NCBI RefSeq assembly: GCF_021246445.1
Contig: NZ_JAJQXW010000006.1
Span: forward strand, 1-35,971
Direction of reading: 5' to 3'
Length of the DNA: 35,971 bases
Source: Rhabdothermincola salaria
Lineage (GTDB): Bacteria > Actinomycetota > Acidimicrobiia > Acidimicrobiales > Acidimicrobilacustridaceae
Shown: positions 6,147-35,970 of the stretch, piece by piece
Position numbering within the stretch: the stretch's first letter is position 1
Layout of the letters: every line of letters starts with the position of its first letter
Position numbers and translations under genes: made by a program
The notes under the pieces: generated by a model
Databases searched by the model: none
What the model saw: the letters and a program-made list of their open reading frames with translations, nothing else
Told to the model about the DNA's origin: nothing

Positions 6147-7313
6147 TCACCGCTCGGGCGCGCCGGCTCCGACGTCCCATCGCACGACCACGAAGCCGCC
6201 GAGCCCGGAGGGGTCGAGCAACGCCTCGGCCTCGCTCACCCGGCTGCGGCCTCGCAGGGCCTCGAGGTCGCCCAGGTGGGCGCGCTCGCGCCAGATCCGT
6301 CGCCCTTCTTCGACGAGGTCGTCGATGCCGTTGGCGAGCAGGAAGTCGGCCTGCGTGCTCACCGTCCCTCCCGGGCACCCCCGCAGGAGCTGGTCGACCG
6401 CGACGTCGGCGGTGATGTCCTGGGTGCCGGGGTCGTCGAGGGGGTGCCCGCCCCGTTCGTGGCCTCGGAAGGTGCGCAACCAGGCCAAGGGGGGCCGCTC
6501 GGCCAGGTCGGCATCGGAGGCGCCGTAGTCGACCACGAGCACCTGCCCCTCCGCCAGGCGGTCCCGGGCCCGGCCCACCCATGCCGCGGCCGCCGCCTGG
6601 TGGGGCACCCACACCCCCGCCGGCAACGCCCCGAGCACCACGTCGTCGGCGGAGGTGGGCCCGCGGGGCACGATCACCGGCGCGAACGCGGCGTCGCCGC
6701 CGCGGACCACGCGCAGCTCCTCGACGCCACCGCCGGTCGCCCGGGCCACCGGATCGAACGGGAGGTTGTCGAGCAGCTCGTTGGCCACCACCACCCCTCG
6801 GACGGTGGCATCGGGGAGGTCCGCGGCCGACACGACAGCCGGCCCGCGCCCGGCCCGGGGGGCGGTGACCACGGCCGTGAGGTCGCCACCGGCGCGCTCC
6901 CCCACCCAGGCTGGCTGGTGCGCGCCATGAGCGGCGCGCTGCGCGGCCGATGTCTCGACCAGGACGTGGACCAGTGCCTCGGCGCAGCGAGGACCGGCGG
7001 CCAGCACGGTGCGGGCCAGCGTGCCGGGTCCGGCGCCACCCTCGATGACGACGAAGGGGTCGGGACGCCCGAGCTCGTCCCAGGAGGCGTCGAGCACCCG
7101 GGCCAGCACGGCACCGAACAGCGGGCCGACCTCGGGGCTGGTGAGGAAGTCGCCCCGGCGGCCGGCCCGGCCACCCCCGGCGTAGAACCCTTCGCGGGGG
7201 TCGTACAGGGCGGCCTCCATGAACGACGAGAAGGCCAGAGGGCCGTCGGCGTCGATGCGAGCCAGCAGACGGTCGTGGAGGGACTCGTCCCCCGGGCCGG
7301 GCGGGGATGCCAT
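6147..7313 (-). CDS. SAM-dependent methyltransferase, MidA/NDUFAF7 (DUF185) family
   Basis: GPLAFSSFMEAALY..GFY, GDFLTSPEVGPLFG, EGGAGPGTLA, ANELLDNLP, VVDYG, PGTQDITADV, TQADFL and LLDPSGLG are the family-typical blocks. Strong SD GGAGG; starts 18 nt after the nuoN2 stop. Confidence 0.88.
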   Translation of the reverse strand: MASPPGPGDESLHDRLLARIDADGPLAFSSFMEAALYDPREGFYAGGGRAGRRGDFLTSPEVGPLFGAVLARVLDASWDELGRPDPFVVIEGGAGPGTLARTVLAAGPRCAEALVHVLVETSAAQRAAHGAHQPAWVGERAGGDLTAVVTAPRAGRGPAVVSAADLPDATVRGVVVANELLDNLPFDPVARATGGGVEELRVVRGGDAAFAPVIVPRGPTSADDVVLGALPAGVWVPHQAAAAAWVGRARDRLAEGQVLVVDYGASDADLAERPPLAWLRTFRGHERGGHPLDDPGTQDITADVAVDQLLRGCPGGTVSTQADFLLANGIDDLVEEGRRIWRERAHLGDLEALRGRSRVSEAEALLDPSGLGGFVVVRWDVGAGAPER

Positions 7314-7331
7314 GGCGGCCTCCCCCGGCGG

Positions 7332-8843
7332 TCAGCCGCCGAGGCCGAGGAGGGTGACGGACTCGGTGAAGTGGGTGAAGGCCCGGGGGAAGACGCCCAC
7401 GGCCAGGGTGAGCACCGCGGTGATGCTGACGGCGGCCACCAACGACGGCGGCACCCGGATGGGCGTGACGTCGCCGTCGGGCGCGTCGTCCATCCACATG
7501 ACCCGCATGAGGCGGCCGTAGTAGGCGAAGGCGACCACGGAGTTCACGGCCACGAGCACGGCGAGCGAGTAGCCCGAGAAGTTGCCCGCGCTGGCCAGGG
7601 CCCGGAAGATCTCGAGCTTGCCGAACCACCCCGCCGCCGGCGGGATGCCGGCCAGGGCGAAGAGGAAGAGCGTCATGCACACCGTGAGAGCGGGGGCGTA
7701 GGAGAACAGCCCGCCGAAGCTGCTCAGCTCCGCCGAACGGGTCTTGCGGGCCACCGCGATGACCACGGCGAAGGCACCGAGGTTCATAGCCGCGTAGATG
7801 AGCAGGTAGACCACGATCGCCTGCAGCGAGGTGAGGCCCACGTCGCCACCCGTGCCGGCGATGGCCAGCGGGGCGAGGATGTAGCCGGCCTGGGCGATGC
7901 CCGAGTAGGCGAGCATGCGCACCACGTTGGTCTGGCGCAGGGCGATGAGGTTGCCCACGGTCATGGTGACGGCGGCGAGCACCCAGATGAGGGGCCCGTA
8001 GACGTCCTCACGGCCGTAGAGGGCGATGAAGACCAGCTGCAACAGGGCGACGAAGCCGGCGGCTTTGGAGGCCACCGCCAAGAAGGCGGTGATGGGCGTG
8101 GGCGCACCCTCGTAGGTGTCGGGGGCCCACGTGTGGAACGGCACGGCGGACACCTTGAAGGCGAAGCCGATGATCACGAACACGATGGCCAGGGTGACGA
8201 TCGGCTGGGTGTCGGCGGCCCCTCCGACCACTTCTCCGATCTCGGCGAGGACGGTGGTGCCGGTGAGCCCGAACAGCAACGACATGCCGTAGAGCAAGAT
8301 GGCCGAGGCGAAGACGCCCATCAGGTAGTACTTGAGACCCGCCTCGTTGCCCTTGCTGTCGCGCTTGCGCCAGGCGGCCAGCGTGTAGGCGGGGATGGAC
8401 AGCATCTCGAGGGCCACGAACATGGTCACGAGGTCGCGGGACGAGGCCATGACGAGCATGCCCACCACCGAGCCGAGCAGCACCTGGTAGTACTCGCCCT
8501 CCCAGTAGTCGCCCTCGGCGATGTAGTTGGTGGACAACAGCACGACCACGTAGGCCGAGGCGAGGAACAGGGCCTTGAGCACCAAGGCGAAGTCGTCGAC
8601 GACGTAGGCGCCGCCGAACATCACCCGGTCGGTGCCGTCCATGGCCAGGGTGACCAGCGGGATGGCCGCCACGAGCAGGCCGATGCCGGCGATCGTCGAC
8701 GACAGCCACCGACCGCTCTCGTCGGTGAAGGCATCGACGATGAGGACCAGCGACAGCACGCCGACCACGATCAGCTCGGGCGCGAGGGCGTGGAGGTCGA
8801 GCTGGGGGGTCTCCCAGGCGAAGGCGGCCAACTGGGCGAGCAC
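7332..8843 (-). CDS. nuoN: Complex I-like subunit N (second cluster)
   Basis: EAGLKYYLMG, AFKVSAVPFHTWAPDTYEGAPTP, RMLAYSGIAQAGY and LAGIPP; GTG start. Confidence 0.95.
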   Translation of the reverse strand: MLAQLAAFAWETPQLDLHALAPELIVVGVLSLVLIVDAFTDESGRWLSSTIAGIGLLVAAIPLVTLAMDGTDRVMFGGAYVVDDFALVLKALFLASAYVVVLLSTNYIAEGDYWEGEYYQVLLGSVVGMLVMASSRDLVTMFVALEMLSIPAYTLAAWRKRDSKGNEAGLKYYLMGVFASAILLYGMSLLFGLTGTTVLAEIGEVVGGAADTQPIVTLAIVFVIIGFAFKVSAVPFHTWAPDTYEGAPTPITAFLAVASKAAGFVALLQLVFIALYGREDVYGPLIWVLAAVTMTVGNLIALRQTNVVRMLAYSGIAQAGYILAPLAIAGTGGDVGLTSLQAIVVYLLIYAAMNLGAFAVVIAVARKTRSAELSSFGGLFSYAPALTVCMTLFLFALAGIPPAAGWFGKLEIFRALASAGNFSGYSLAVLVAVNSVVAFAYYGRLMRVMWMDDAPDGDVTPIRVPPSLVAAVSITAVLTLAVGVFPRAFTHFTESVTLLGLGG

Positions 8844-8846
8844 CGA

Positions 8847-10406
8847 TCAGCTCCCTGCGTTGCCGAAGGCGGCGACGGTGTTGACGACGGCGGGGTCGGT
8901 GACCTTGAACAGCAGGTTCGGGTAGATGCCGAGCACGACGATCAGGGCCAGCATCGGCGTCCAGGCCACCCACTCGGCGGGCTGCACGTCGGTGATGTGG
9001 GGGTCGTCGGCGAATTCCTCGGTGGGTTCGCCGAACGCCACCCGCTGGTAGAGCCAGAGCAGGTAGGCGGCGGCGAGCACCGTGCCGAGGGCGGCGACGA
9101 CCATGTAGACCCGGAACAGCGCCTCGTTCAGGTCGCCGCCGGGGTTGTAGGCCGAGAGGATCGCCGGGAACTCGCCCCAGAAGCCGGCCAGGCCGGGCAG
9201 ACCGAGCGAGGCCATGGCGGAGAAGCCCAGGATCCAGCCCATGCGGGGAGCCTGCTTGAGCATCCCGCCGAGACGCCCGATCTCGAGGGTGTGGTAGCGC
9301 TCCTTGGTGGAGCCGGCCACGAAGAAGAGCATCCCGGTGATGAGGCCGTGGGCGACCATGCCGAAGATGGCCGCGTTGATGCCGAAGTCGGTGAGGGTGG
9401 CGATGCCGAGCATCACGAAGCCCATGTGGGCCACGGACGAGAAGGCGATGAGGCGCTTCATGTCGGTCTGGGCCAGACAGCACAGCGCCCCGTAGATGAT
9501 GCCGATGACGGCCAGCAACCCGATGAAGGGCGCCCACCGTTCGGCCGCTTCGGGCAGGATCGGCAGCGAGATGCGCACGAACCCGTACGTGCCGAGCTTC
9601 AGCAGCACCGCGGCCAGGATCACCGAGCCCACCGTGGGGGCCTGGGTGTGGGCGTCGGGCAGCCACGAGTGGAACGGGAACATGGGCACCTTGATGCCGA
9701 AGCCCATGAACATGCCACCGAAGATCCACAGGGCCGCACCGATGGAGATGCCCTCGGCGGCGGCCGGCAGCTGGGTCATGTCGAAGGTGTGGCGCATGAC
9801 GCCGTCGACCATGATCTCGTCGGAGAGGAAGTACAGCGCCATGAAGCTGACGATCATGAGCGCCGAGCCGAACAGCGTGTAGAGGAAGAACTTCATCGAC
9901 GCGTAGCGGCGCTTCTCGCCGCCCCACACGCCGATCATGAAGTACATCGGCAGCAGCACGACCTCGAAGAACACGAAGAACAAGATGAGGTCCTGGGCGG
10001 CGAACGTGCCGATCATGCCCGTCTCGAGGATGAGGATCAGTGCCAGGAACGCCTTGGGGTTGTGCGGCTCCGGGAAGTGGTTCCACGAGTACACGATGCA
10101 CAACGGCACCACCAGCATCGTGAGGGCGATGAGCGGCAGCGAGATGCCGTCCATGCCGACGATGTAGCGGCTGTTGATCACCGGGATCCACGCCTTGTCG
10201 ACGAAGAACTGCAGCGCTCCCGCGTCGTCGTAGTCGAAGTTGGTGAACAGCAGCACACCGACCAACGCCACCGCGAGGGAGGTGACGAGGGCGGTGACCT
10301 TGATGAGGTACTCGTCCTTCTTGGGGATGAGCATCACCACGGCCGCACCGACCAGCGGCAAGAACACCGCCAGGCTGAGGCCCCAACCGTTCAGGAAGTC
10401 TTTCAT
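8847..10406 (-). CDS. nuoM: Complex I-like subunit M (second cluster)
   Basis: DGISLPL, FFVFFEVVLLPMY, KVPMFPFHSWLPDAHTQAPT, LLKLGTYG and GLPGLAGFWGEF. Confidence 0.96.
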   Translation of the reverse strand: MKDFLNGWGLSLAVFLPLVGAAVVMLIPKKDEYLIKVTALVTSLAVALVGVLLFTNFDYDDAGALQFFVDKAWIPVINSRYIVGMDGISLPLIALTMLVVPLCIVYSWNHFPEPHNPKAFLALILILETGMIGTFAAQDLILFFVFFEVVLLPMYFMIGVWGGEKRRYASMKFFLYTLFGSALMIVSFMALYFLSDEIMVDGVMRHTFDMTQLPAAAEGISIGAALWIFGGMFMGFGIKVPMFPFHSWLPDAHTQAPTVGSVILAAVLLKLGTYGFVRISLPILPEAAERWAPFIGLLAVIGIIYGALCCLAQTDMKRLIAFSSVAHMGFVMLGIATLTDFGINAAIFGMVAHGLITGMLFFVAGSTKERYHTLEIGRLGGMLKQAPRMGWILGFSAMASLGLPGLAGFWGEFPAILSAYNPGGDLNEALFRVYMVVAALGTVLAAAYLLWLYQRVAFGEPTEEFADDPHITDVQPAEWVAWTPMLALIVVLGIYPNLLFKVTDPAVVNTVAAFGNAGS

Positions 10407-10425
10407 CAGTGGCTTTCCTGGGTTC

Positions 10426-12630
10426 CTAGAGGACGAAGACGAAGACGCCGGCCAAGACCGTGGCAGCGGCGAAGAGGATGGCGCCGTACTGCTGGACCTT
10501 GCCGGTCTGCAGACGACGCAGGAGCTGGCCGGAGGCCTCGGAGGCCGTACCCGAACCGTTCACGAGGCCATCGACCACGAACTGGTCGACGCCGCGGTAG
10601 ACGACGCCGGAGGCCTTCCGGAAGACCGTCGCGGTGCCATCGACGATGCCGTCGATGACGTTCTGGTTGAACCAGTTCGCGGCCCGGGCCAGGGGGCCCT
10701 TGGTGTTGGCCGCGATGATGTCGGTGTAGAGGTGGTCGAGGTAGTACTTGTTCTCGAGGATGGTGTAGCCGCCCCGGGCCAGGCGACTGCGGGCCATGAG
10801 GCCGTGCGGGCCCAGGTTCTTCTCGTAGTACGCGTAGGCCGCGAAGAGCCCGGCGACCGCCAGCACGGTGGACAGCAGCGCCACCCAGGGCACGAAGCCC
10901 GAGTGCGCCACCGCGGGGAAGACGAAGTTCGGCTCGACGTAGTCCTCGAAGGGGTGGACGAACGCGCTGGGGAGCTCGAGGCCGAAGAAGTTCGCCGGGA
11001 AGTTGAAGAACCCGAAGGTCACCGAGGCGATGGCCAGGATGACGAGCGGCACGGTCATGACCCTCGGCGACTCGTGAGGCGTGCCGTGGCCCCGGTACTC
11101 GCCCCAGAAGGTCATCCAGTAGGCCCGGCCCATGTAGGCCGCCGTCATGAAGGCCGTGATGAAGCCCATGACGAGCATGAAGGTGTAGGCCTGCTCCTGC
11201 CCGACCGCGGCGCCGGCGAGGATCTCGTCCTTGGACCAGAACCCGGCGAAGGGGATGATGCCGGCGAGGGCCAGCGTGGCCAACAAGAACGTGATGTGAG
11301 TGGTCTTCATGTACTTGCGCAGGCCACCCATCTCACGCATGTCGAACGTGTGGTGGGCCGCATGGCTGACCGAGCCGGCACCGAGGAAGAGGCAGGCCTT
11401 GAAGAAGGCGTGGGTGAAGAGGTGGAACACGCCGGCCGTCCACGCCCCCACCCCGAGGGCCATGACCATGTAGCCCAGCTGGGAGATGGTCGAGTAGGCC
11501 AGGACCTTCTTGATGTCGTACTGCACGAAGGCGAGGACGCCGCCGATGATGGTGGTGAGCCCACCGATGAGGGCCACGTAGTGGAACGAGCTCGATCCGA
11601 TGGCCAGACCCGACCAGAACACCGGGTACAGGCGGGCGATGAGGTAGACGCCGGCGACCACCATGGTGGCGGCGTGGATGAGCGCAGACACCGGGGTGGG
11701 CCCGGCCATGGCATCGGGCAGCCAGGTGTGCAGCGGGAACTGGCCCGACTTCGAGGTGACACCGGCGAACAGGCACAGCGCACCCACGAGCAGCAGGGTG
11801 GTGTTGGCCCCCGGCGAGAGGGCGTACTCGTTGATGTGCAGCACCCCGAAGCTGGTGGCCCCGGCGGCGAAGAAGGTGATGGTGACGCCGATGATGAGGC
11901 CCATGTCGCCGACACGGTTGGTGAGGAAGGCCTTGAGGGCGGCGTCGGAGTTCTTCTTCTCCTCCCACCAGTGCCCGATGAGGGCGAACGAGCAGAGACC
12001 GACGAGCTCCCAGCCCACCAGCATCTGCAGCGTGTTCGAGCTGATGACGTAGAGCAGCATCGACGCGGTGAACAGCGACAGGAAGGCGTAGTAGTGGGTG
12101 AAGCGCCGATCGCCGCGCAGGTACTCGGTGGAGTAGATGTGCACCAGCAACGAGATGATGGTCACCGTCACCAGCATCATGGCGGTGAGCCCGTCGACCA
12201 GGGTGCCGGCCTTGAACTCGATGCCTCCGATCTGGAACCACGTGACCTCGGCGACCACCGGAGTGACGGCGGCCTCGGCCTTGCCCTCCCCGGCGGCGGC
12301 GGCGAGCTCGCCGGCGGCGCTCTCACCGGTGCCGGGGCCGATGGGCGTGACGACCGCGGCGGAGTGGCCCTCGGCGCCGGCCTCCGCTGGCGGAGGCAGC
12401 TCCACGCCCTGCAGCTCCGAGGAGGGCACCGAGGTCGGCGGGTCGTCGACCCGCTGGATCCACTGGCCGGCCACGACGAGCGACAGCAGCAGGCAGACGG
12501 AGACCGAGGCGATGCCGATGCCGGCAGTGGCCCTGGTGCCCAGACGCTTGCCGAAGAACAAGATGGCCACGAACGACACCGCCATGAGGGCGGGGAGGAT
12601 CCAGACCTGGTCGAGGAGATGGGGGATCAC
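10426..12630 (-). CDS. nuoL: Complex I-like subunit L (second cluster)
   Basis: GWELVGLCSF, KAFLTNRVGD, KSGQFPLHTWLPDAMAGPTPVSALIHAATMV, HAFFKA, FWSKDEI and LQTGKVQQY. Confidence 0.96.
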   Translation of the reverse strand: MIPHLLDQVWILPALMAVSFVAILFFGKRLGTRATAGIGIASVSVCLLLSLVVAGQWIQRVDDPPTSVPSSELQGVELPPPAEAGAEGHSAAVVTPIGPGTGESAAGELAAAAGEGKAEAAVTPVVAEVTWFQIGGIEFKAGTLVDGLTAMMLVTVTIISLLVHIYSTEYLRGDRRFTHYYAFLSLFTASMLLYVISSNTLQMLVGWELVGLCSFALIGHWWEEKKNSDAALKAFLTNRVGDMGLIIGVTITFFAAGATSFGVLHINEYALSPGANTTLLLVGALCLFAGVTSKSGQFPLHTWLPDAMAGPTPVSALIHAATMVVAGVYLIARLYPVFWSGLAIGSSSFHYVALIGGLTTIIGGVLAFVQYDIKKVLAYSTISQLGYMVMALGVGAWTAGVFHLFTHAFFKACLFLGAGSVSHAAHHTFDMREMGGLRKYMKTTHITFLLATLALAGIIPFAGFWSKDEILAGAAVGQEQAYTFMLVMGFITAFMTAAYMGRAYWMTFWGEYRGHGTPHESPRVMTVPLVILAIASVTFGFFNFPANFFGLELPSAFVHPFEDYVEPNFVFPAVAHSGFVPWVALLSTVLAVAGLFAAYAYYEKNLGPHGLMARSRLARGGYTILENKYYLDHLYTDIIAANTKGPLARAANWFNQNVIDGIVDGTATVFRKASGVVYRGVDQFVVDGLVNGSGTASEASGQLLRRLQTGKVQQYGAILFAAATVLAGVFVFVL

Positions 12631-12637
12631 GGTCAGC

Positions 12638-12952
12638 TCAGCCCTTCAACAGATCGAGCTCGGTGACGTCGATGCTCTGTCGGTTGCGGTAGATCATCAT
12701 CACCATGGCCAGGCCGACGCCGACCTCGGCGGCGGCGATGGCGATCACGAACAGGGCGAAGACCTGGCCCGTCATGTTGGTGATGTCACCGGCGTGCCAC
12801 ATGGCCCCGAAGGCGACGAGGTTGATGTTGACGGCGTTGAGGATGAGCTCGATCGACATCAGGATCATCACGCCGTTGCGGCGGGCGAGCACCCCGTAGA
12901 CGCCGATGCAGAACAAGATCGCGCCGAGGAAGAGGAACTGGTTGACGAGCAT
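12638..12952 (-). CDS. nuoK: Complex I-like subunit K (second cluster)
   Basis: RRN..MILMSIELILNAVN and GQVFALFVIAIAAAEVGVGLA. Confidence 0.95.
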   Translation of the reverse strand: MLVNQFLFLGAILFCIGVYGVLARRNGVMILMSIELILNAVNINLVAFGAMWHAGDITNMTGQVFALFVIAIAAAEVGVGLAMVMMIYRNRQSIDVTELDLLKG

Positions 12953-12955
12953 GGG

Positions 12956-13465
12956 TCAGTCCCGCCTTGCCAGGACGATGGCCCCGACCAGGGCCACGAG
13001 CAGGAGCACCGAGATCACCCAGAAGGGGATCAAGAAGGTGGAGAAGATGGAGTCGCTGACCTCGGCGGTGCGCTGGACGGCGATGTCGCCGAACTCTCGG
13101 TCCTCGAAGCCGTCCCAGAGGGCGAAGCCGAGCAGGCCGGCGAGGATGACCCCGATGCCGGCGGCGACGGCCTTGGCCGGGCCCGGGTTGTCGAGGTCGT
13201 CGGTGCGGCCGATCTTGGAGCGGGTGAGCATGATGCCGAACAGGAACAGCACCATGATGGCGCCGAGGTAGACCAGCACCTGAGTGATGGCCACGAACTC
13301 GGCGGCCAACAAGATGTACTGGGCGGCCACGCCGGCGAGGACCAGCACCAGCCAGAGGGCGGCGTGCATGATGTTCTTGCTGGTGACCACGCGGATGGCC
13401 CCGAAGACCATCAGGGCGGCGATCACGTAGAACGCGATGTTCTGGGCGACGAGCAGGGCGAGCAT
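12956..13465 (-). CDS. nuoJ: Complex I-like subunit J (second cluster)
   Basis: ATG 13465 (TGATG overlap with the nuoI2 stop). KNIMHAALWL, AEFVAITQVLVYLGAIMVLFLF and LLVALVGAIVLAR. Confidence 0.93.
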   Translation of the reverse strand: MLALLVAQNIAFYVIAALMVFGAIRVVTSKNIMHAALWLVLVLAGVAAQYILLAAEFVAITQVLVYLGAIMVLFLFGIMLTRSKIGRTDDLDNPGPAKAVAAGIGVILAGLLGFALWDGFEDREFGDIAVQRTAEVSDSIFSTFLIPFWVISVLLLVALVGAIVLARRD

Positions 13466-13968
13466 CAGTCTCGAGGCACCTTCTTGACCTTGGCCTCGGA
13501 GCCGGCCTCGTAGGCGGGGAAGTCCGGGACGGTCTGCATCCACTGGCCCAAGCGGGTCTTGTCGTGGAGCAGGTCGGCGATGCGGACCTCGGAGTACTCG
13601 TACTCGGGGCTCCAGAAGAGGGCCTCGAAGGGGCAGACCTCGACGCAGATGCCGCAGTACATGCACAGGGCGAAGTCGATGTCGAAGCGGTCGAGGGCGT
13701 TCTTCTGGCGGGGCTTGCCGCCCTCACGGCGCGGAGGCGCGAGGTACTTGTGGGCCTCGATGAAGATGCACCAGTCGGGGCACTCGCGAGCGCACAGCAT
13801 GCACGCGGTGCAGTTCTCCTCCTTGAGCGAGATCACACCCCGCGCACGCGGCGCGGGGAGCTCCTTCTCGTGGGGGTAGAGCGTGGTCTGGGGGCCCGAG
13901 GTGAGGGTCTTGACCATCTCACCGAACGTGACACCGAGGCCCTTGATCAGACCTGGGACCTGAGGCAT
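13465..13968 (-). CDS. nuoI: Complex I-like subunit I, 2x[4Fe-4S] (second cluster)
   Basis: [19 protein letters not shown] and [12 protein letters not shown]. Confidence 0.95.
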
Positions 13969-15006
13969 CTAGAGCACCACCTTGAGCACGCCGGTCACGA
14001 GGATGTTCACGAGTGAGATGGGGATCAGCACCTTCCAGGCGAAGGACTGCAGCTGGTCCTCACGGAAGCGGGGGTAGGTGAAGCGGACCCAGAAGATGAT
14101 GAACGACACGAGCATCACCTTGGCGAACAGCACGATGGGCCCGAGGACGTAGTACCAGTCGCTCGAGGTCGAGAGCCACGGGACCGCCCAGCCACCGAGG
14201 AAGAGCACCGATGCGATCGCCGCGAAGGCGAAGGCGGTGGCGAACTCGGCGAGGAAGAACAACAGGAACCGGAAGCCCGAGTACTCGACCTGGTAGCCGC
14301 CGACGATCTCGGACTCGGCCACCGGCATGTCGAAGGGGGGCTGGGTGAGCTCGGCCTGCACGGCGGCGAGGAAGATCACGAACCCGACGAACTGGGTGAG
14401 GATGAACGGGTTGCCGATGCCGCCCCAGCCGAAGATCTCGCCGTCGGCCTGGGCGAACACGATGCCGTTGAGGCTGAGGGTGCCGGCCTGGATGACCACA
14501 CCGACGACCGCCAGCACGAGCGGGAGCTCGTAGGCGATGAGCTGCCCGGCGGCACGGAGCGCACCGATGAGGGAGTACTTGTTGGCCGAGGCCCAACCGG
14601 CCATCAGCACGCCGATGACCGACAGCGACGAGACCGCCAGCACGAAGAAGATGCCGGTGTCGAGGTCTTCGACGACGAGGTTCGGTGAGGCGGGGATGGC
14701 CACGTAGACGAGCAGCGTCGAGACGAGAACGACGATCGGTGCGGCCCGGAAGACGAACTTGTCGGCCCCGTTGGGCATGAGGTCCTCCTTCTGGAGGAAC
14801 TTCACGCCGTCGGCGAGCAGCTGCAGGGTGCCACGAGGGCCGGCTTCCTGAGGCCCGAGGCGGCTCTGCATCCAACTCATGACCTTGAAGAGGAAGACCA
14901 TGCCGAGGATGAGGGCGGTGGTGGGGACCACCGCGCTGACCACGAGGACCTTGATGACGGTCGACAGCCAGTAGGGCGGGTCGAACGCGGCGAGGAGGAG
15001 GGTCAT
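13969..15006 (-). CDS. nuoH: Complex I-like subunit H (second cluster)
   Basis: MQSRLGP, ADGVKFLQKED, NKYSLIGALRAAGQLIAYE, PFDMPVAESEIVGGYQVEYSG and YPRFREDQL. Confidence 0.95.
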   Translation of the reverse strand: MTLLLAAFDPPYWLSTVIKVLVVSAVVPTTALILGMVFLFKVMSWMQSRLGPQEAGPRGTLQLLADGVKFLQKEDLMPNGADKFVFRAAPIVVLVSTLLVYVAIPASPNLVVEDLDTGIFFVLAVSSLSVIGVLMAGWASANKYSLIGALRAAGQLIAYELPLVLAVVGVVIQAGTLSLNGIVFAQADGEIFGWGGIGNPFILTQFVGFVIFLAAVQAELTQPPFDMPVAESEIVGGYQVEYSGFRFLLFFLAEFATAFAFAAIASVLFLGGWAVPWLSTSSDWYYVLGPIVLFAKVMLVSFIIFWVRFTYPRFREDQLQSFAWKVLIPISLVNILVTGVLKVVL

Positions 15007-16178
15007 CGGTCGATGTCACCCAGGATGAAGTAGAGGCTGCCGAGGATCGAGATGAGGTCGGGGACGTAGACGCCCCGGGCCACCCACGGCACGATGGAGA
15101 TGTTGTTGAACGAAGGCGTGCGGATCTTGACCCGGAACGGGACCAGGTCACCCTTGGAGACGACGTAGTAGCCCATGGCGCCGAGGGGGTTCTCGGTCTC
15201 GACGTACGCTTCGCCCTCGGGCACCTTGATGATGCGCGGCACCTTGGCCATGACCGGACCGCCGGGCAGCGAGTCGAGCAGCTGGTCGACGATGAGGGTG
15301 GCTTCGCGGGTCTCCTGCAGACGCACCCACGTGCGGGCGTAGCAGTCGCCGTCGGGGTGGGTCCAGACCTTCCAGTCGGCCTGGTCGTAGGCCAGCCCGG
15401 GCGGGCACGCGTCGCGCCGCAGGTCCCAGTCGACCCCCGAGCCGCGCAGGTTGGCGCCGGAGAGCCCGTAGCTGAGGGCGATGTCGGCGGGGATGATGCC
15501 GATGCCGCGGGTACGAGCCTGGAAGATCTCGTTGCCCATCATCAGGGTCTCGGTCTCGTCGCAGAAGGCTCGGAGGCGCGCCATGGCGGCCTTGGTCTCG
15601 GCGATCCAGCCCTTGGGCAGGTCGTCCTTGAGGCCGCCGATGCGGTCGAAGTTGGGATGGAAGCGACCGCCGGTGGCCGCCTCGATCTGGTTGAGCACGT
15701 GCTCGCGGTCACGGAAGGCGTAGAAGCCCATCGTCATGGCCCCGAGCTGCAGGCCGAAGTCGCCGAGGAACAGCGAGATGTTGGCGATGCGGGCCAGCTC
15801 GAAGAGGATGGTGCGGATGTGCTGGGCCTGCGGCGGGGCCTCGACCTCCATCAGCTTTTCGGCGGCGAGGATGAATGGCACCTCGTTGGCGAAGCTGCCG
15901 AGCCAGTCGATGCGGTTGATGAGGGCCGTGACCTGCGGGTAGGTGCGGACCTCGGTGAGCTTCTCGTAGCCGCGGTGCATGTAGCCCGGGATCGGTTCGG
16001 CGGTGATGATCTCCTCGCCGTCGAGCTTGGCGACGATGCGCAGGGTGCCGTGGGTGGCCGGGTGCTGCGGGCCCAGGTTGAGGGTCATGCCCTCGGTCTC
16101 GAGCTCGACGTTGACGCGGGCGTCGGCGGCCTGCGACGCGATGTAGGCGAGCTGGTCGCGCTCGCTGATGGCGGTCAT
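15003..16178 (-). CDS. nuoD: Complex I-like subunit D (second cluster)
   Basis: [45 protein letters not shown] and GDIDR. No NiFe CxxC motifs. Confidence 0.95.
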
Positions 16179-16861
16179 TCGCCCTCTCCCTCGTCGTCGC
16201 CCTCACCGGGCAGCGGCTCCACGTCGACGATGCCCGGCCACGGACGCACCCGGCGGCTCAGCAGCGGGAAGTCCTTGCGCAGGGGGTGCCCCTGGAAGTC
16301 GGCCGGGAGGTACAGCTTGATCAGGTTGGGGTGCCCGTCGAAGGTGATGCCGAACATCTCGAAGCACTCGCGCTCGTGCCAGTTGGCCCCCCGGAAGTGC
16401 GGGGTCCAGCTGCCGATGCGCAGGTCGTCGTCGGCGATGTCGGCCTTGAGGTGCACGCCCATGCCGGCGGCGATGGAGTAGAGCCGGCCGATGACCTGGA
16501 AGCGGGTGTCGCCGCCGGCGTAGCCCTGCTGCAGGGGCCCGGGATCCTTGGGCTCGCCGCCGTGGACCGCCAGGTCCTCCTGGGCGTCCATGTCGCGCCC
16601 GTAGGGCGAGGGCAGCCAGTCGATGGCGGAGAGGTAGTCGAAGAAGTCGTAGCCCAGGGCCTTGAGCTCGGCCGCGGCCTGGGGCCAGGCGTCGCGGTCG
16701 ACGCGAACCCAGAGGTCGTCGAGAGGACGGATGTGGGAGCCGACGACGGCGTCGCCGAGGGCCGCGGTGATCTGGCCCAGGAGGGCCTCACGGGGCTCGT
16801 CGACGAGCGGCGCCTCTTCCTCGGGCGCCTCGGTCTCGGTGGACGTGTCAGCCGACGACAA
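16175..16861 (-). CDS. nuoC: Complex I-like subunit C (second cluster)
   Basis: YLSAIDW and [41 protein letters not shown] 16861 is preferred on SD spacing; GTG 16870 is the alternative. Confidence 0.92.
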
Positions 16862-17348
16862 TCGGATCACCCTTCCAACGAGCGGACATGTCCTCGTTCA
16901 AGATGCGCTCCTGGAGCAGGACCACACCCTCGAGCAGGGCCTCGGGCCGAGGCGGGCAACCGGGGACGTAGACGTCGACGGGGATGATCTGGTCGACGCC
17001 CTTGGTCACCGAGTAGCTGTCCCAGTAGGGGCCCCCGCAGTTGGCGCACGATCCCATGGAGATGACGTACTTGGGGTCGGGCATCTGCTCGTAGAGGCGC
17101 AGCACGGCCGGCGAGAGCTTGTCGGTGACGGTGCCGGCGATGACGACGAGGTCGGCCTGCCGGGGCGTGGCCGGGAACGGGATGACGCCGAGGCGCATCA
17201 CGTCGTAGCGGGGAGAGGCGAAGGCGGCCCCCATCTCGATGGCGCAGCACGCCAGACCCCACTGGTACGCCCAGATGGAGTACTTGCGGCTCATGTTCAG
17301 GAGCTTGCCGATGGACTTCGGCATGCGTCCGCTCTCGACTAGGCCCAT
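16848..17348 (-). CDS. nuoB: Complex I-like subunit B, N2 cluster (second cluster)
   Basis: ATG 17348. [33 protein letters not shown] and [14 protein letters not shown]. Confidence 0.96.
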
Positions 17349-17713
17349 CGGATGACCCCCTTGCGCCAGGCGTGGAGCAGGCCCAGGGCGAGCAGCACGA
17401 TGACCGAGCCCATGGCCACCAGGCCGAACCAGCCGTAGACCTCGAGACGGGTGGCCCACGGGAAGATGAACACCGCTTCGACGTCGAAGATGACGAACAT
17501 GAGGGCGAAGACGTAGTAGCGGATCTGGCTCTGCGACCAGGCGGTGCCCACGGCGTCGACGCCCGACTCGTAGGTCAGGTACTTCTGCTCCTGGGGGCGG
17601 GTCGGTCGCAGGATGCGACCGAGGCCCAGGAGCCCCGCGGCCAGACCGACGCCGACACCTGCGAAGATGGCGACCGTCAGGTACTGCCGCACGAAATCGG
17701 AGTACTCAGACAT
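17339..17713 (-). CDS. nuoA: Complex I-like subunit A (second cluster)
   Basis: [31 protein letters not shown] and AWRKGVIRW. Confidence 0.95.
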
Positions 17714-30220: not shown

Positions 30221-30834
30221 CAGGCTTCGCGCTCCTCGGTGGCGGACATCCACACCGGGATGGCGGTGTCCTCGGGGGTGACGTTGCCGGCCCGGCGTTC
30301 GACGGGGATGTGCTGGCGGACCCGGGCCAGGGTGCCGTGGGGCGGGATGTCGTCGCGCCGGCCGCCGCGGAGGTCGTCGACGAGCTGGTCGAACTCGTCG
30401 TGGGTGATCTTGTGGAAGTACCGGTAGTTGACCTGCAGGCACGGGGCCTCGGTGCAGGCCGCGATGCACTCGACATCCTCGATGGTGAACACGCCGTCGG
30501 AGGTGGTCTGGCCGGGCACGATGCCCAGGCGCTGCTCGGCGTGGTGGAGGAGCTCCTCGCCACCGAGGAGCTGACAGGAGATGTTGGTGCAGATGTTCAC
30601 CATGTAGCGCCCGACCGGCTCGAACTTGAACATCTCGTAGAAGCTGGCCGTGCCCAGCACCTCGGCTGATGTGACGCCGACCAGCTCGGCGATGTGGGCC
30701 ATGGCCTCGTCGGTGACGTGGCCGTCCTGCTCCTGGGCCAGGTGCAGCAGCGGGATCAGCGCCGACTTGGGCCGGGGATAGCGACCCACGATCTCGCGGG
30801 CGACGGTGAGGTTCTCAGGGGTGAAGCGCGGCAT
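30220..30834 (-). CDS. nuoE: NADH-quinone oxidoreductase subunit E
   Basis: ATG 30834 (TGATG overlap). SALIPLLHLAQ, ASFYEMF, CTNISC and VECIAACTEAP (N1a). Confidence 0.95.
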   Translation of the reverse strand: MPRFTPENLTVAREIVGRYPRPKSALIPLLHLAQEQDGHVTDEAMAHIAELVGVTSAEVLGTASFYEMFKFEPVGRYMVNICTNISCQLLGGEELLHHAEQRLGIVPGQTTSDGVFTIEDVECIAACTEAPCLQVNYRYFHKITHDEFDQLVDDLRGGRRDDIPPHGTLARVRQHIPVERRAGNVTPEDTAIPVWMSATEEREA

Positions 30835-32171
30835 CAGCGATCGACCTCGCCGAGGATCGGGTCGACCGACGAGATGATGGCCACCCCGTCGGCGATCAGG
30901 CCCTCGTGCATCATGTGGGGGAGGGCCTGGAGGTTCACGAAGCTCGGGGCCCGGACGTGCATGCGGTAGGGGTTCGGGGAGCCGTCGCTCACGATGTAGC
31001 AGCCGAGCTCGCCACGCGGGCTCTCCACGGAGACGTAGGCCTCGCCCTCGGGCACCTTGAAGCCCTCGGTGAAGATCTTGAAGTGGTGGATGAGCGCCTC
31101 CATCGATTCGTCGATGCGGGCGCGGGGCGGCGGCGTGACCTTCTTGTCCTGGATCCGGTAGTCGCCCTTGGGCATGCGCTCGAGGCACTGGCGCACGATC
31201 TTCATCGACTCGCGGATCTCGGCCAGGCGGATGGCGTAGCGGTCGAAGCAGTCGCCGTAGCTGCCGACGACGACGTCGAAGTCGACCTGGTCGTAGGCCA
31301 GGTAGGGCAGGTCGCGGCGCAGGTCCCAGGCGTAGCCGGTGGAGCGCAGGATCGGGCCGGTGACCCCGAGGGTGAGGCACTCCTCCGCACTGATCACGCC
31401 GATGCCCTGGAGGCGCTCCTGCCAGATCGGCTGGTTCGACATGAGCGTCTCGTACTCGTCGAGGCGCTCGGGGAGCAGGTCGAGCAGGCGCTCCACGCCG
31501 CCGTGCCACCCGTCGGGCAGGTCGGCGGCCACGCCGCCGGGGCGGATGTAGTTGTGGTTCATCCGCAGGCCGGTGACCTCCTGGAGGAACCGCAGCGCCT
31601 CTTCGCGCTCGCGCCAGCCGTACAGCATCATCGACACCGCACCGAGGTCCATGCCGTTGGTCGCCATGAACAGCAGGTGCGAGGACATCCGGTTCAGCTC
31701 GGTCATGAGCATTCGGATCCACACCGCCCGCTCGGGGACCTCGATGTCGAGGAGCTTCTCGACGGTGAGCGAGAACGCCAGCTCGGTGAACAACGGCGCG
31801 GCGTAGTCCATGCGGGTGACGTTGGTGGGGCCCTGGAGGTAGGTGAGCTCCTCGCCGGTGCGCTCCATGCCCGTGTGCAGGTAGCCGATGATCGGCTTGC
31901 AGCGCAGGACGGTCTCGCCGCGCAGCTCGAGCATGAGGCGCAGCACCCCATGGGTGCTGGGGTGCTGGGGCCCCATGTTGATGAGCATGGTCTCGCCGTC
32001 GGGGGACGGCTGGGACTGGAGGTCGGCGGCCTCGGTCTCGGACAGACGCAGGACGGCGCCGAGCTCGCGCAGCCGTTCGGCGGCGTCGAGCACGTCGCGA
32101 GGTTGCATCTCCTGACCTCCCTCGGAGGTCTGGGCGACGTTGGCCGCGGGGGCGTCGTGGGTGGTGCTCAT
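30834..32171 (-). CDS. nuoD: NADH-quinone oxidoreductase subunit D
   Basis: NMGPQHPSTHGVLR, GYLHTGMER, TRMDY, MEALIHHFK, ESPRGE and SSVDPILGEVDR. Confidence 0.96.
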   Translation of the reverse strand: MSTTHDAPAANVAQTSEGGQEMQPRDVLDAAERLRELGAVLRLSETEAADLQSQPSPDGETMLINMGPQHPSTHGVLRLMLELRGETVLRCKPIIGYLHTGMERTGEELTYLQGPTNVTRMDYAAPLFTELAFSLTVEKLLDIEVPERAVWIRMLMTELNRMSSHLLFMATNGMDLGAVSMMLYGWREREEALRFLQEVTGLRMNHNYIRPGGVAADLPDGWHGGVERLLDLLPERLDEYETLMSNQPIWQERLQGIGVISAEECLTLGVTGPILRSTGYAWDLRRDLPYLAYDQVDFDVVVGSYGDCFDRYAIRLAEIRESMKIVRQCLERMPKGDYRIQDKKVTPPPRARIDESMEALIHHFKIFTEGFKVPEGEAYVSVESPRGELGCYIVSDGSPNPYRMHVRAPSFVNLQALPHMMHEGLIADGVAIISSVDPILGEVDR

Positions 32172-33791: not shown

Positions 33792-34736
33792 TCAGGCGTC
33801 CTTCGAGGCGGCCTCGGCGGCGGCCTTGTTCTTCATCAGGGTCTTGTCACGGCTGTGCAGGACCCAGGCGAACAGGACGAACAACGACGTCGAGATCACG
33901 AAGTAGAGGAAGGGCAGGAGCCGCACGCTGCCGAGATCACGGACCATGACGACCGAGACGACCGGCGCGTCGGGGTCGACCTCGGGCAGGGGCGGGGCCT
34001 CACCCTCGACCGGCGTCTGCTCGATGACGGCCTGCACCTGCACGATGGCGTAGTGGGTGGGGTGGGTGAACTGGAAGCTCTTGCGCACCCGGTACCAGGC
34101 CCGGCACAGCGCACCGTCGTCGGGGCAGGCCTCGGCCCGGGTCTGCTTGCCGCCGAAGGAGAACGTGTCGAGGCGCTCGAACTCCGTGGGGCCACCGAAG
34201 TAGCCGGCGTCGACGAGGGCCACCTCGGCGGCCGCCTGGGCCTCACCGGCGGCGCTCGGGGAGATGATGCGCCAGCCGTTGAGGGCCTCTTCGTCGAGGT
34301 ACTGCTCGAGGAGCTCGGGATGCGACGTGGTCAACTCCGAGATGAGGAACCCGTTGGGGTACTCCTCGGAGAGCTCGGGGTTCTCGGCCAGGATCCGGTC
34401 GGCCTGGGGCAGGTCTTCGGGCTGGGGCAGCTGCTCGGCCGCGTCGGTGCGTGGTGTCTCCGGGCCGTCGACGTAGATCTCGACGGCTTGCCACGACGGG
34501 TTCTCGCCTCGCGGCCCGATGGCCGGGGGCATCAGCCACCAGATGAAGGTGAGGATGACCATCCAGCCGGCCAAGCCGGCGAGCGACAGCAGCAGGCCCA
34601 GGCGGGCGCCCACGTTGGTGCCGAGCAGCAGGTAGACCGACCCGCACAGCACGCCTACGCCGACGACCACGATGAGGATGCCACGGATGCCCGGGTCCCA
34701 GGCGAGGCCGGCGAAGAGGTTGACGGTGGCAAGCAT
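33792..34736 (-). CDS. Uncharacterised membrane protein (2 N-terminal TM helices, acidic soluble domain, 1 C-terminal TM)
   Basis: ATG 34736 (MLATVNLFAGLAWDPGIRG). Hydrophobic segments GILIVVVGVGVLCGSVYLLL, LGLLLSLAGLAGWMVILTFIWW and LLPFLYFVISTSLFVLFAWVL. Tightly packed between the cytochrome c gene and nuoA. Confidence 0.8.
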   Translation of the reverse strand: MLATVNLFAGLAWDPGIRGILIVVVGVGVLCGSVYLLLGTNVGARLGLLLSLAGLAGWMVILTFIWWLMPPAIGPRGENPSWQAVEIYVDGPETPRTDAAEQLPQPEDLPQADRILAENPELSEEYPNGFLISELTTSHPELLEQYLDEEALNGWRIISPSAAGEAQAAAEVALVDAGYFGGPTEFERLDTFSFGGKQTRAEACPDDGALCRAWYRVRKSFQFTHPTHYAIVQVQAVIEQTPVEGEAPPLPEVDPDAPVVSVVMVRDLGSVRLLPFLYFVISTSLFVLFAWVLHSRDKTLMKNKAAAEAASKDA

Positions 34737-34741
34737 CGGGG

Positions 34742-35869
34742 TCACAGGCTCCGCTCGTATTCGACGACGGCCGCGATCTGCTCCTGGGTGAGCATCACCT
34801 GGTCGGGGCTCAGCCGGGCCGTCTCGGGATCGATGGCGTTGGGGTTGGCCCCGAAGCCGGGCATGGCCCCCTCGGAGAGGCCGAACTGGCCGTAGGCCGT
34901 ACCAAACGGCTGGTAGTTGGTGACGAAGTCGATCTGGCTCTGCGCCGTGGGGAACTGGCGCAGGGTGGAACCGCCGGTGAGGTTGGGGCCCATGGCTCCG
35001 CCACCGGGAACCTGGGGCTCGCCGTAGGACCAGCCCTTGGTGTGGCAACGCCCACAGGAGTAGGAGCCGCCGGCGAAGCCGTCGTAGAGGCCGAGGTTGA
35101 AGATGGCCTCACCGAGGGTCTCGTAACGCACGCTGCCACCGGGACTGGCGGGGTCGTTCGTCGTGCAATTGCCGTCGGCGTCGGGGGCGCAGACCGTCTC
35201 GATCTGCTCGTCGACGGCGGCGCGGGCCTCCTCGGCGCTGAGCTGGATGCTGAAGAGGTAGTCGACGATGTTGTCGAGCTGTTGGTCGGTGAGCGGACCT
35301 CCGCCCTCGGCTCCCCACGCCGGCATGGGCGAGAACGCACGGCCGTAGATCAGGATCGACTTGACCTCTTCGGCGGTGTAGCGGAACAGCACGTCGTCGA
35401 GCGACGGCGCCTTCCAGCTGACGCTGGCGATGAAGTCGCCGTTGTCGCCCGTGAGCGTGAAGTTGGCCACGCCCCCCACACCTTCGGGGCCGTGGCACGA
35501 GGCGCACTGCGCGCCGTTGACGTAGAGGTCTTCACCGCGGGAGACGAAGACCTCCTCGAAGTTGGCCACCGCGTCCTCCTGGCGACCGGGTTCGGCCAGC
35601 CAGTACAGCGGCAGGGTGACACCGATGACGGCGAGGGTGGCCAGACCCAGCCCGAGGGTGCGATCGAGCTTCTTGGTCTCGAGCTCCTCGTCGTCCATGT
35701 AGGGACGGCGGTTGGCGGCGAGCTCGAGCTCCGAGCCGACCTCGGCCCGGCCCTTGCGCATGTTGACGATGACTCCGATGCCGAAGCCGACGATGAGGAC
35801 GATGGCGACGATGATGCCGATCGTGCGCTGGGTGTTGGCCAGCACGACGGTCGCGAGAAGGTTCGACAT
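34742..35869 (-). CDS. Membrane-anchored diheme c-type cytochrome
   Basis: Two N-terminal TM helices. CASCH (35506-35492) with a distal SPMPAWG Met, and CGRCH (35056-35042) with a GAMPGFG Met. ATG 35869 overlaps the upstream TGA. Confidence 0.9.
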   Translation of the reverse strand: MSNLLATVVLANTQRTIGIIVAIVLIVGFGIGVIVNMRKGRAEVGSELELAANRRPYMDDEELETKKLDRTLGLGLATLAVIGVTLPLYWLAEPGRQEDAVANFEEVFVSRGEDLYVNGAQCASCHGPEGVGGVANFTLTGDNGDFIASVSWKAPSLDDVLFRYTAEEVKSILIYGRAFSPMPAWGAEGGGPLTDQQLDNIVDYLFSIQLSAEEARAAVDEQIETVCAPDADGNCTTNDPASPGGSVRYETLGEAIFNLGLYDGFAGGSYSCGRCHTKGWSYGEPQVPGGGAMGPNLTGGSTLRQFPTAQSQIDFVTNYQPFGTAYGQFGLSEGAMPGFGANPNAIDPETARLSPDQVMLTQEQIAAVVEYERSL

Positions 35870-35970
35870 CAATGGGATCCGGCTCCTACGCAGTGGGGTC
35901 CTTCGGCTTCCTGGCCGGTGGTGTTGACCCCGATCGGGGCACCCTGGATGATCATGCCGGTGTTCACGGT
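35869..35970 (-). CDS. 3' end of an upstream gene, probably the Rieske Fe-S subunit of a bc-type complex (partial)
   Basis: Manual translation TVNTGMIIQGAPIGVNTTGQEAEGPHCVGAGSH*, with its stop overlapping the cytochrome c ATG (TGATG). It resembles, from memory, the C-terminal tail of Acidimicrobiia Rieske proteins. The Fe-S motifs would lie outside the window. Confidence 0.6.
   Translation of the reverse strand, partial: TVNTGMIIQGAPIGVNTTGQEAEGPHCVGAGSH

Follow-up and report, generated by a model that had tools for sequence, protein, structure and literature searches.

Why should the gene for a putative methyltransferase close the operon of a complex I relative, and which of the cell's two complex I-type enzymes would it serve? 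The question is raised by a 35,971-nt stretch of Rhabdothermincola salaria DNA (the window, by which we mean the whole stretch that was analysed), whose minus strand carries all the genes of interest. In order of falling coordinates these are a 14-gene nuo set, an 11-gene nuo2 set, an 18-nt spacer, the gene midA (6147..7313) and an acetate-CoA ligase gene. The midA product, 388 amino acids long, is of the MidA/NDUFAF7 family (PF02636, COG1565) of S-adenosylmethionine (SAM)-dependent methyltransferases. As the available text of two papers has it, NDUFAF7 is the enzyme that methylates Arg85 of NDUFS2 in human cells (PMC3829151; PMC9006661). We consider it the most probable reading, at roughly 0.6, that midA encodes a SAM-dependent protein methyltransferase made with the Nuo2 complex and acting, as an accessory factor, on its subunit NuoD2, most likely on Arg69.

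Family and Fold of MidA

The preliminary description of this DNA had assigned midA to the DUF185/MidA family, and at the family level Pfam, profile comparison and fold all agree with it. The protein matches Methyltransf_28 (PF02636) with 92.2 bits (cut-off 23.3; E 4.7e-26) over model positions 1-233 of 249; no NCBIfam model matches it. In the PDB the single sequence finds 4f3n (Burkholderia COG1565; 1.7e-20), 1zkd (Rhodopseudomonas DUF185; 1.3e-15) and 5ztz (Dictyostelium MidA/NDUFAF7; 3.5e-15), and a profile of 60 actinobacterial MidA sequences finds the 4f3n/4g67 protein at 4.3e-58, 1zkd at 9.2e-50 and 5ztz at 8.3e-45 (over 331 positions). The AlphaFold model (predicted local distance difference test 94.9, predicted template modelling score 0.92) has a predicted fold of the MidA type, in which extra domains accompany a seven-beta-strand methyltransferase core: its top six Foldseek matches are all PF02636/COG1565 structures (4g67, 5zu0/5ztz, 4f3n, 1zkd) with template modelling (TM) scores of 0.69-0.76, the score against Dictyostelium 5ztz/5zu0 being 0.75 and that of the next methyltransferases about 0.3. 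By sequence and predicted fold, MidA is thus a member of the PF02636 family, which is a statement of family membership as distinct from orthology with NDUFAF7. Its closest named relatives are in Iamiaceae and in contigs of other Acidimicrobiia metagenome-assembled genomes, at no more than 64% identity.

The glycine-rich segment EGGAGPGT occupies residues 91-98, and in the 60-sequence alignment G97 is invariant and A94 and G95 are nearly so; E179, D182 (ANELLDN), D262, Y263 (DYG) and D299 are likewise invariant, with E120 nearly so. As in class I methyltransferases generally, these conserved residues would bind SAM or the substrate. Among 14 well-known control genomes, PF02636 was found in Caulobacter, Synechococcus elongatus and Haloferax volcanii only; E. 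coli and Thermus are among those without a match. Of the three positive genomes, those of Synechococcus elongatus and Haloferax volcanii presumably encode complex I relatives without NuoEFG, so that the link of MidA to such “headless” enzymes may be wider.

That midA, 18 nt past nuoN2, looks like the twelfth gene of the operon had also been noted, and the junction was read directly: nuoN2 (7332..8843, minus strand) stops with TGA at 7334-7332, and the spacer (7314..7331, minus strand) consists of CCGCC, GGGGGAGG and a second CCGCC, which places GGGGGAGG 5 nt before the midA ATG at 7313-7311. A consensus scan of both strands between 3900 and 8000 found no promoter- or terminator-like sites, a result that is uninformative at 70% G+C. 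The R. salaria genome (3.9 Mb in 7 contigs) holds a single PF02636 gene and two NuoD genes.

Residues of NuoD2 and NuoD1

The two NuoD proteins of the window, NuoD2 (391 amino acids; 15003..16178, minus strand; PF00346, E 1.2e-77) and NuoD1 of the 14-gene operon (30834..32171, minus strand; NCBIfam NuoD, 550 bits, and its motif), are 38.6% identical. The preliminary description had set Arg69 of the one against Thr100 of the other, and codons and motifs bear out the contrast: Arg69 is encoded by CGC (15974-15972), whereas the NuoD1 motif IIGYLHTGMER has Thr100, encoded by ACG (31874-31872), and is followed by Tyr123. In the order to which R. salaria belongs, all 60 NuoD2 orthologues have GYMHRGYEK with Trp at +23, and NuoD1 has GYLHTGME[KR] with Tyr at +23 in 20/20 genomes (9 without MidA, 11 with it).

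When NuoD2 residues 27-112 were aligned by HMMER to the solved NuoD/NDUFS2 chains, without gaps, Arg69 fell on the Arg of GLLHRGTEK in the mitochondrial chains and on the Thr of GYLHTGFEK in Nqo4 of T. thermophilus; with the offset of +16 in the 430-residue mature mitochondrial chains, Arg69 corresponds to residue 85 (bovine Arg85). NuoB2 retains the CC...C...CP cysteines (including PGCPP, read in translation), which we assume to bind cluster N2, and the candidate Arg69 is a probable neighbour of an N2-type cluster.

The spacing of 23 residues between Arg69 and residue 92, which had been likened to that between the mitochondrial Arg and the quinone-binding Tyr, is correct, but residue 92 is Trp (codon 15905-15903) and not Tyr, with RIDWLGS in place of RLDYVSM (mitochondria) or RMDYLHS (Thermus). 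We take the His of the beta1-beta2 loop and Tyr87 (Thermus) or Tyr108 (bovine) to be quinone-site residues; NuoD2 keeps His39 and His43 of that loop but is without the Tyr, and so departs from the canonical quinone site. Since the Tyr is replaced by Trp92, NuoD2 is no ordinary quinone-site subunit, and its enzyme is a relative of complex I whose quinone pocket has changed; Trp92 suggests either a rebuilt pocket or another acceptor.

Arg69 and Trp92 are invariant in 71/71 aligned NuoD2 sequences. In a tree built from 76 NuoD proteins (one in three of the order-level 60, the window's NuoD2 and NuoD1, and every NuoD match of more than 300 residues from the loci fetched outside the order-level set), the NuoD2-type sequences form a clade of 68 rows with a Shimodaira-Hasegawa-like approximate likelihood ratio test value of 99.

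Linkage Within the Order

We sampled 151 genomes from the window's order and searched them for PF02636 and NuoD2, the NuoD2-type matches being at least 66% identical and the NuoD1-type ones about 40% (the unpublished genomes G042, G143 and G065 enter these tallies only). Both genes are present in 104 genomes and neither in 42; three have MidA only (G077, 75% complete and without any NuoD match; G107, 89% complete; G108, with only weak PF02636 matches) and two have NuoD2 only (G103, 87% complete; G115, 63% complete). Of the 104 with both, 82 have midA downstream of nuoD2, on the same strand and at a distance of 7.4-17.5 kb; in the rest midA is upstream (2), on a different contig (17) or far apart (3).

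For the reading of gene order, 60 of the 84 linked regions were fetched (L035-L094). The order A2-B2-C2-D2-H2-I2-J2-K2-L2-M2-N2-MidA was found in 58 of them, a count that includes three fetched stretches whose first genes did not show in the tblastn map; midA is upstream of nuoA2 in the other two. NuoN2 homology ends no more than 150 nt before MidA homology begins in 46/57 loci, and the median gap is 56 nt; the count leaves out three loci in which NuoN2 was matched at below 40% identity at best. In a further, independent set of 80 named contigs, obtained with a mixed MidA alignment that matched Acidimicrobiia contigs only, nuoN2 lies directly upstream of midA in 67 and further upstream in 5, while 5 hold too little DNA and 3 show no nuoN2. 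The linkage is still kept in the order at MidA identities that have fallen to 36-53%, while those of NuoD2 are 66-83%, and the nuo2-midA arrangement is far beyond chance.

One genome of the order (G072, C5:21967-23133) has a NuoD2 match with a single in-frame TAG in an operon that is otherwise intact, midA included.

Linkage Across Actinomycetota

The phylum was sampled with 301 genomes at least 90% complete, a NuoD2-like gene being one that matches the window's NuoD2 (P0001) at E <=1e-75. PF02636 occurs in 101 of these genomes and a NuoD2-like gene in 187: 98 have both, 111 have neither, 3 have MidA alone and 89 a NuoD2-like gene alone. The unpublished genomes G151, G168, G197, G216, G236, G266, G291, G315, G360, G371 and G395 figure in the tallies only, G236 being one of the 38 with adjacent genes described below. 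The preliminary description had proposed to test whether midA goes with HRG-type rather than HTG-type nuoD, and the sample does not refute it: besides the 98 MidA-positive genomes with a NuoD2-like gene, two without such a match (G180, G237) have an HRG-type NuoD with GNLHRGVEK and Tyr, which makes 100 of 101, and a single genome showed the HTG type alone.

Outside the window's class, 79 genomes are MidA-positive. In 38 of them, drawn from ten of our family codes (f96, f102, f107, f114, f118, f122, f124, f126, f133, f149), no more than 8 kb separates midA from a NuoD2-like gene, and in 20 of these no more than 1 kb. At the 20 loci fetched, the NuoD2-like gene stands alone in every case, the only other nuo2 gene within about 7 kb being one nuoC2 at one locus; MidA was recognised there by tblastn with the window's MidA (P0002) at 18 loci and by PF02636 at all 20. 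The two genes are mostly convergent, but divergent pairs and pairs with midA directly upstream on the same strand also occur, and at the two loci where the other neighbours were read they are unrelated (SelA, a BNR-repeat protein, NUDIX and a histidine kinase). All 20 stand-alone NuoD2-like proteins have GYMHR[GA][AY]EK and Trp at +23. Since midA stands beside nuoD2 even where nuoD2 stands alone, midA tracks NuoD2 and not the operon, and NuoD2 is its likely partner.

Genome G202 has two NuoD2 copies, one with GYMHRAFEK in a full nuo2 operon and one with GYMHRGYEK alone beside midA (L130, L175); on the tree the copies are in sister groups, as would follow from a duplication within that family. 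Operon-type MidA has a segment of about 35-40 residues (residues about 127-165 of the window's MidA, P0002; alignment columns about 136-175) that the MidA encoded beside stand-alone nuoD2 lacks.

These loci bear on two other explanations of the arrangement. An inherited accident of gene order without functional link has nothing specific to recommend it beyond the fact that operon membership alone can be neutral, and we hold it to be very improbable: the linkage has been kept across the order at 36-53% MidA identity, and ten other family codes show it again, in convergent, divergent and midA-upstream orientations, next to a nuoD2 that stands alone. It is also conceivable that MidA is merely co-regulated with Nuo2 and modifies something other than NuoD2, be it another Nuo2 subunit, an unrelated protein or a small molecule. 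The bacterial PF02636 structures (4f3n/4g67, 1zkd) were indeed deposited as uncharacterised, f89 and several other family codes have midA without linkage to nuo genes, and where it has been split from nuo2 (L183, L185) it stays beside the acetate-CoA ligase gene (acs). Against such a substrate, midA adjoins nuoD2, and not the rest of nuo2, where nuoD2 has left the operon, and HRG-type NuoD accompanies MidA in 100/101 genomes; we judge this explanation distinctly unlikely.

In f89 (21/21 genomes MidA-positive), f84, f98 and others, midA lies away from the nuo genes. One genome of f99, a family otherwise without MidA (1/24), has a contig (G408, C498) with a NuoD2 79% identical to the window's and midA 8 kb downstream, which may be an Acidimicrobiia contig that contaminates the bin, or the product of a transfer.

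Nuo2 Systems Without MidA

Several observations weigh against the proposal that MidA acts on Arg69 of NuoD2, and we take them together here. At the level of the order, both genes sit in one operon, so that a single deletion loses both and co-occurrence adds little beyond synteny; we accordingly rejected it as evidence independent of synteny, and the related genomes in these counts are in any case non-independent samples. Of the 79 genomes with MidA outside the class, 40 have the two genes on separate contigs or far apart, among them G415 (1.1 Mb) and all 21 genomes of f89, and G226, a MidA-positive genome that is 98% complete, showed an HTG-type NuoD only. In the phylum sample, 89/187 genomes with a NuoD2-like gene have no PF02636, and the NuoD2 of such MidA-less systems reads GYMHR[GA]FEK plus Trp in all 14 motifs readable at 15 loci. 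As the Arg is kept without MidA, something other than methylation must account for its conservation there, which is the situation in E. coli too.

The 15 loci fetched from MidA-negative genomes (L135-L149) are complete nuo2-type operons, from f91, f94, f95, f113, f117, f129, f132 and parts of f96 and f98, and a tailored actinobacterial MidA profile found nothing credible in 5/5 such genomes (best match 16.8 bits, E 0.007). At a further seven loci (five MidA-negative and two MidA-positive), the operon is of the 11-gene type and its NuoD has HRG plus Tyr in 6/7, which are all the readable ones. MidA is thus nearly always accompanied by an HRG-type NuoD, whereas the converse fails; MidA would be accessory and not obligatory because many relatives have Nuo2 without it. 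The idea of a MidA dedicated to the headless enzyme, put forward in the preliminary description, is borne out by a strong and conserved genomic link to NuoD2; MidA is, all the same, no general requirement, 89 of 187 genomes being without midA.

The MidA-less lineages also lend some weight to an explanation in which MidA is a NuoD2-specific assembly chaperone, with binding rather than Arg69 methylation as its essential act, or in which it methylates another NuoD2 residue. The gene linkage indicates NuoD2 and no particular residue, lineages that lack MidA retain Arg69 and show that the Arg can do without the enzyme, and the Dictyostelium structure, as far as its title goes, concerns “regulation of Complex I assembly by MidA.” The invariance or near-invariance of the glycine-rich motif and of the acidic and aromatic residues in 60 diverged sequences, on the other hand, fits selection for catalysis, and a review, in the portion available, states that a methyltransferase-deficient mutant failed to rescue the Dictyostelium knockout (PMC9006661). 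We regard the chaperone, or another target residue, as unlikely.

Two features of NuoD2 may be recorded beside these comparisons. Trp takes the place of the quinone-binding Tyr in every NuoD2-type sequence read (60/60 in the order, 20/20 stand-alone, and the 14 MidA-less operon copies). Residue 71 (15968-15966), two after the Arg, is Tyr, Ala or His in genomes with MidA and Phe in MidA-less ones; the tally is 14 MidA-negative with Phe and 51 MidA-positive without it, with 2 exceptions. We dropped this co-variation as evidence, since on the tree the Phe state changes only 2 times and the MidA state 3 times, which permits no test by independent pairs.

Proposed Role of MidA

Family, predicted fold, conserved motifs, the homology of Arg69 with Arg85 and the conserved linkage to NuoD2 are observed; methylation of Arg69 is what the family would lead one to expect by analogy. 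In the role that we propose, MidA would be made together with the 11-subunit, NuoEFG-less Nuo2 complex, presumably from one transcript, and would bind newly made NuoD2. Using SAM, it would then methylate Arg69, the counterpart of the Arg that NDUFAF7 dimethylates symmetrically in NDUFS2, probably before NuoD2 docks onto NuoB2 and buries the Arg beside the terminal Fe-S cluster. NuoD1, with Thr at that position, would be left untouched as a non-substrate. A prediction of the complex of NuoD2 (71-row alignment), SAM and MidA (60-row alignment), made without controls, gave a median score of 0.23 against a mark of 0.32 and has no bearing on binding.

Relation to Known Systems

Human and Dictyostelium NDUFAF7/MidA (5ztz, 5zu0, 5zzw) share the Pfam family and the fold of R. 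salaria MidA, and the position of the candidate target Arg is homologous; like NDUFAF7, R. salaria MidA is proposed to be an accessory factor of a complex I-type enzyme. Identity to NDUFAF7/MidA in the structural alignment is only 22-23%, and the activity of the actinobacterial protein is one that we infer. The partner also differs: here it is a NuoD paralogue, with Trp for the quinone Tyr, from an 11-subunit enzyme that has no NADH module, and the gene lies in or beside those for the structural subunits.

Dimethyl-Arg is described, in the available part of one paper, in the human, Pichia and Paracoccus NuoD homologues and not in E. coli NuoCD, which keeps the Arg unmodified (PMC3750175). Paracoccus denitrificans Nqo4 is the bacterial case, a NuoD with symmetric dimethyl-Arg from a lineage in which PF02636 occurs, as the positive Caulobacter control shows. 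The only NuoD there belongs to a 14-subunit, NADH-oxidising complex I and is the substrate, whereas in R. salaria the Arg is confined to the second complex, the NADH-oxidising one having Thr. The Rhodopseudomonas palustris protein (1zkd) is an example of an alphaproteobacterial MidA homologue, and the closest solved relative by both sequence and fold (TM 0.76), the Burkholderia thailandensis COG1565 protein (4f3n, 4g67), was deposited without a function.

A further parallel is in Candidatus Actinomarina, in which, according to the available text of a bioRxiv preprint of 2021, the same nuoA,B,C,D,H-N are followed by NDUFAF7 (K18164/PF02636), beside a 14-subunit set; the preprint calls NDUFAF7 an accessory assembly component (10.1101/2021.02.01.429150). 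The mention there is a passing one, in the context of heliorhodopsin genes, and in that text comes without NuoD residues, co-occurrence counts or a link to stand-alone nuoD2. In Streptomyces, nuoD2 is separate from nuoA2,B2,H2-N2 (PMC8388888, PMC3765725), which fits the stand-alone NuoD2-like genes beside midA in f107 (genomes of 7-10 Mb), a family code that is presumably Streptomyces; the available portions of both papers mention no neighbouring methyltransferase. Our search of the literature available to us found no prior report of midA beside nuoD2, of the Arg/Thr contrast or of the Trp, save for the arrangement in the Actinomarina preprint.

The observation from which we set out is confirmed as real, and its proposed interpretation, with MidA as an accessory factor, has good support from comparative genomics; it extends known biology. 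New here are the co-occurrence and synteny counts for the order, midA beside stand-alone nuoD2, and the Arg plus Trp in all NuoD2-type sequences read. The R. salaria pair would be a bacterial counterpart, already glimpsed in the preprint, of a mitochondrial complex I assembly step; in mitochondria the role of the dimethyl-arginine beside cluster N2 is inseparable from assembly defects. R. salaria offers a natural control within one cell, with two complex I-type enzymes of which one has Arg and one Thr, and the phylum offers others, in Nuo2 with and without MidA and in the lineages with a stand-alone nuoD2-midA pair. The value of the finding is tempered by the earlier appearance of the arrangement in the preprint and by a function that is only inferred.

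A broader and more speculative proposal sees in MidA and NuoD2 an old module of two genes in Actinomycetota, independent of the alphaproteobacterial and mitochondrial pair, in which Arg methylation would be an optional tuning of the junction between cluster N2 and quinone in an enzyme with a Trp pocket, and for whose loss MidA-losing lineages would have compensated through the Phe two residues past the Arg. We think this doubtful. If true, arginine methylation of complex I would be older and wider than the “proteobacterial origin” that has been printed for it, and culturable, tractable actinobacteria with the gene pair could be used to learn what the modification does.

Gene Layout of the Window

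The nuoE, nuoF and nuoG genes are confined to the 14-gene set (33788-17872, minus strand); the 11-gene set (17713-7332, minus strand) has none of them, by Pfam assignment of its 11 ORFs (open reading frames). Upstream of nuoD2, and like it on the minus strand, are nuoA2 (17339..17713; PF00507, E 7.1e-32), nuoB2 (16848..17459; PF01058, E 2.3e-28), whose start is uncertain and probably at a later Met, and nuoC2 (16175..16870; PF00329, E 7.1e-31). On the same strand there follow nuoH2 (13969..15006; PF00146, E 1.2e-102); nuoI2 (13465..13968; Fer4 families), with two 4Fe-4S motifs; and nuoJ2 (12956..13666; PF00499, E 8.5e-37), whose start is again uncertain, the listed ORF overlapping nuoI2 and the Pfam match covering residues 89-232 only. 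The set continues with nuoK2 (12638..12952; PF00420, E 4.7e-30), nuoL2 (10426..12630; PF00361, PF00662 and PF01010) and nuoM2 (8847..10406; PF00361, E 4.4e-75, and PF01059), and ends with nuoN2 (PF00361, E 1.7e-67).

Past midA by 68 nt lies its downstream neighbour, the acetate-CoA ligase gene acs (6078-4141, minus strand). The same gene comes next after midA in 29/60 fetched operons, and is still 3' of midA in the two genomes, already mentioned, in which midA is split from nuo2. Upstream of nuoA1, a 418-residue ORF without a Pfam match (33792-35048, minus strand) overlaps a 376-residue ORF with cytochrome c domains (34742-35872, minus strand), so that probably only one of them is a gene. The two nuo sets, of 14 and 11 genes, stand head to tail, about 160 nt apart, and the same tandem is found in many relatives, in which the NuoD1 and NuoD2 matches lie 15-25 kb apart on one contig.

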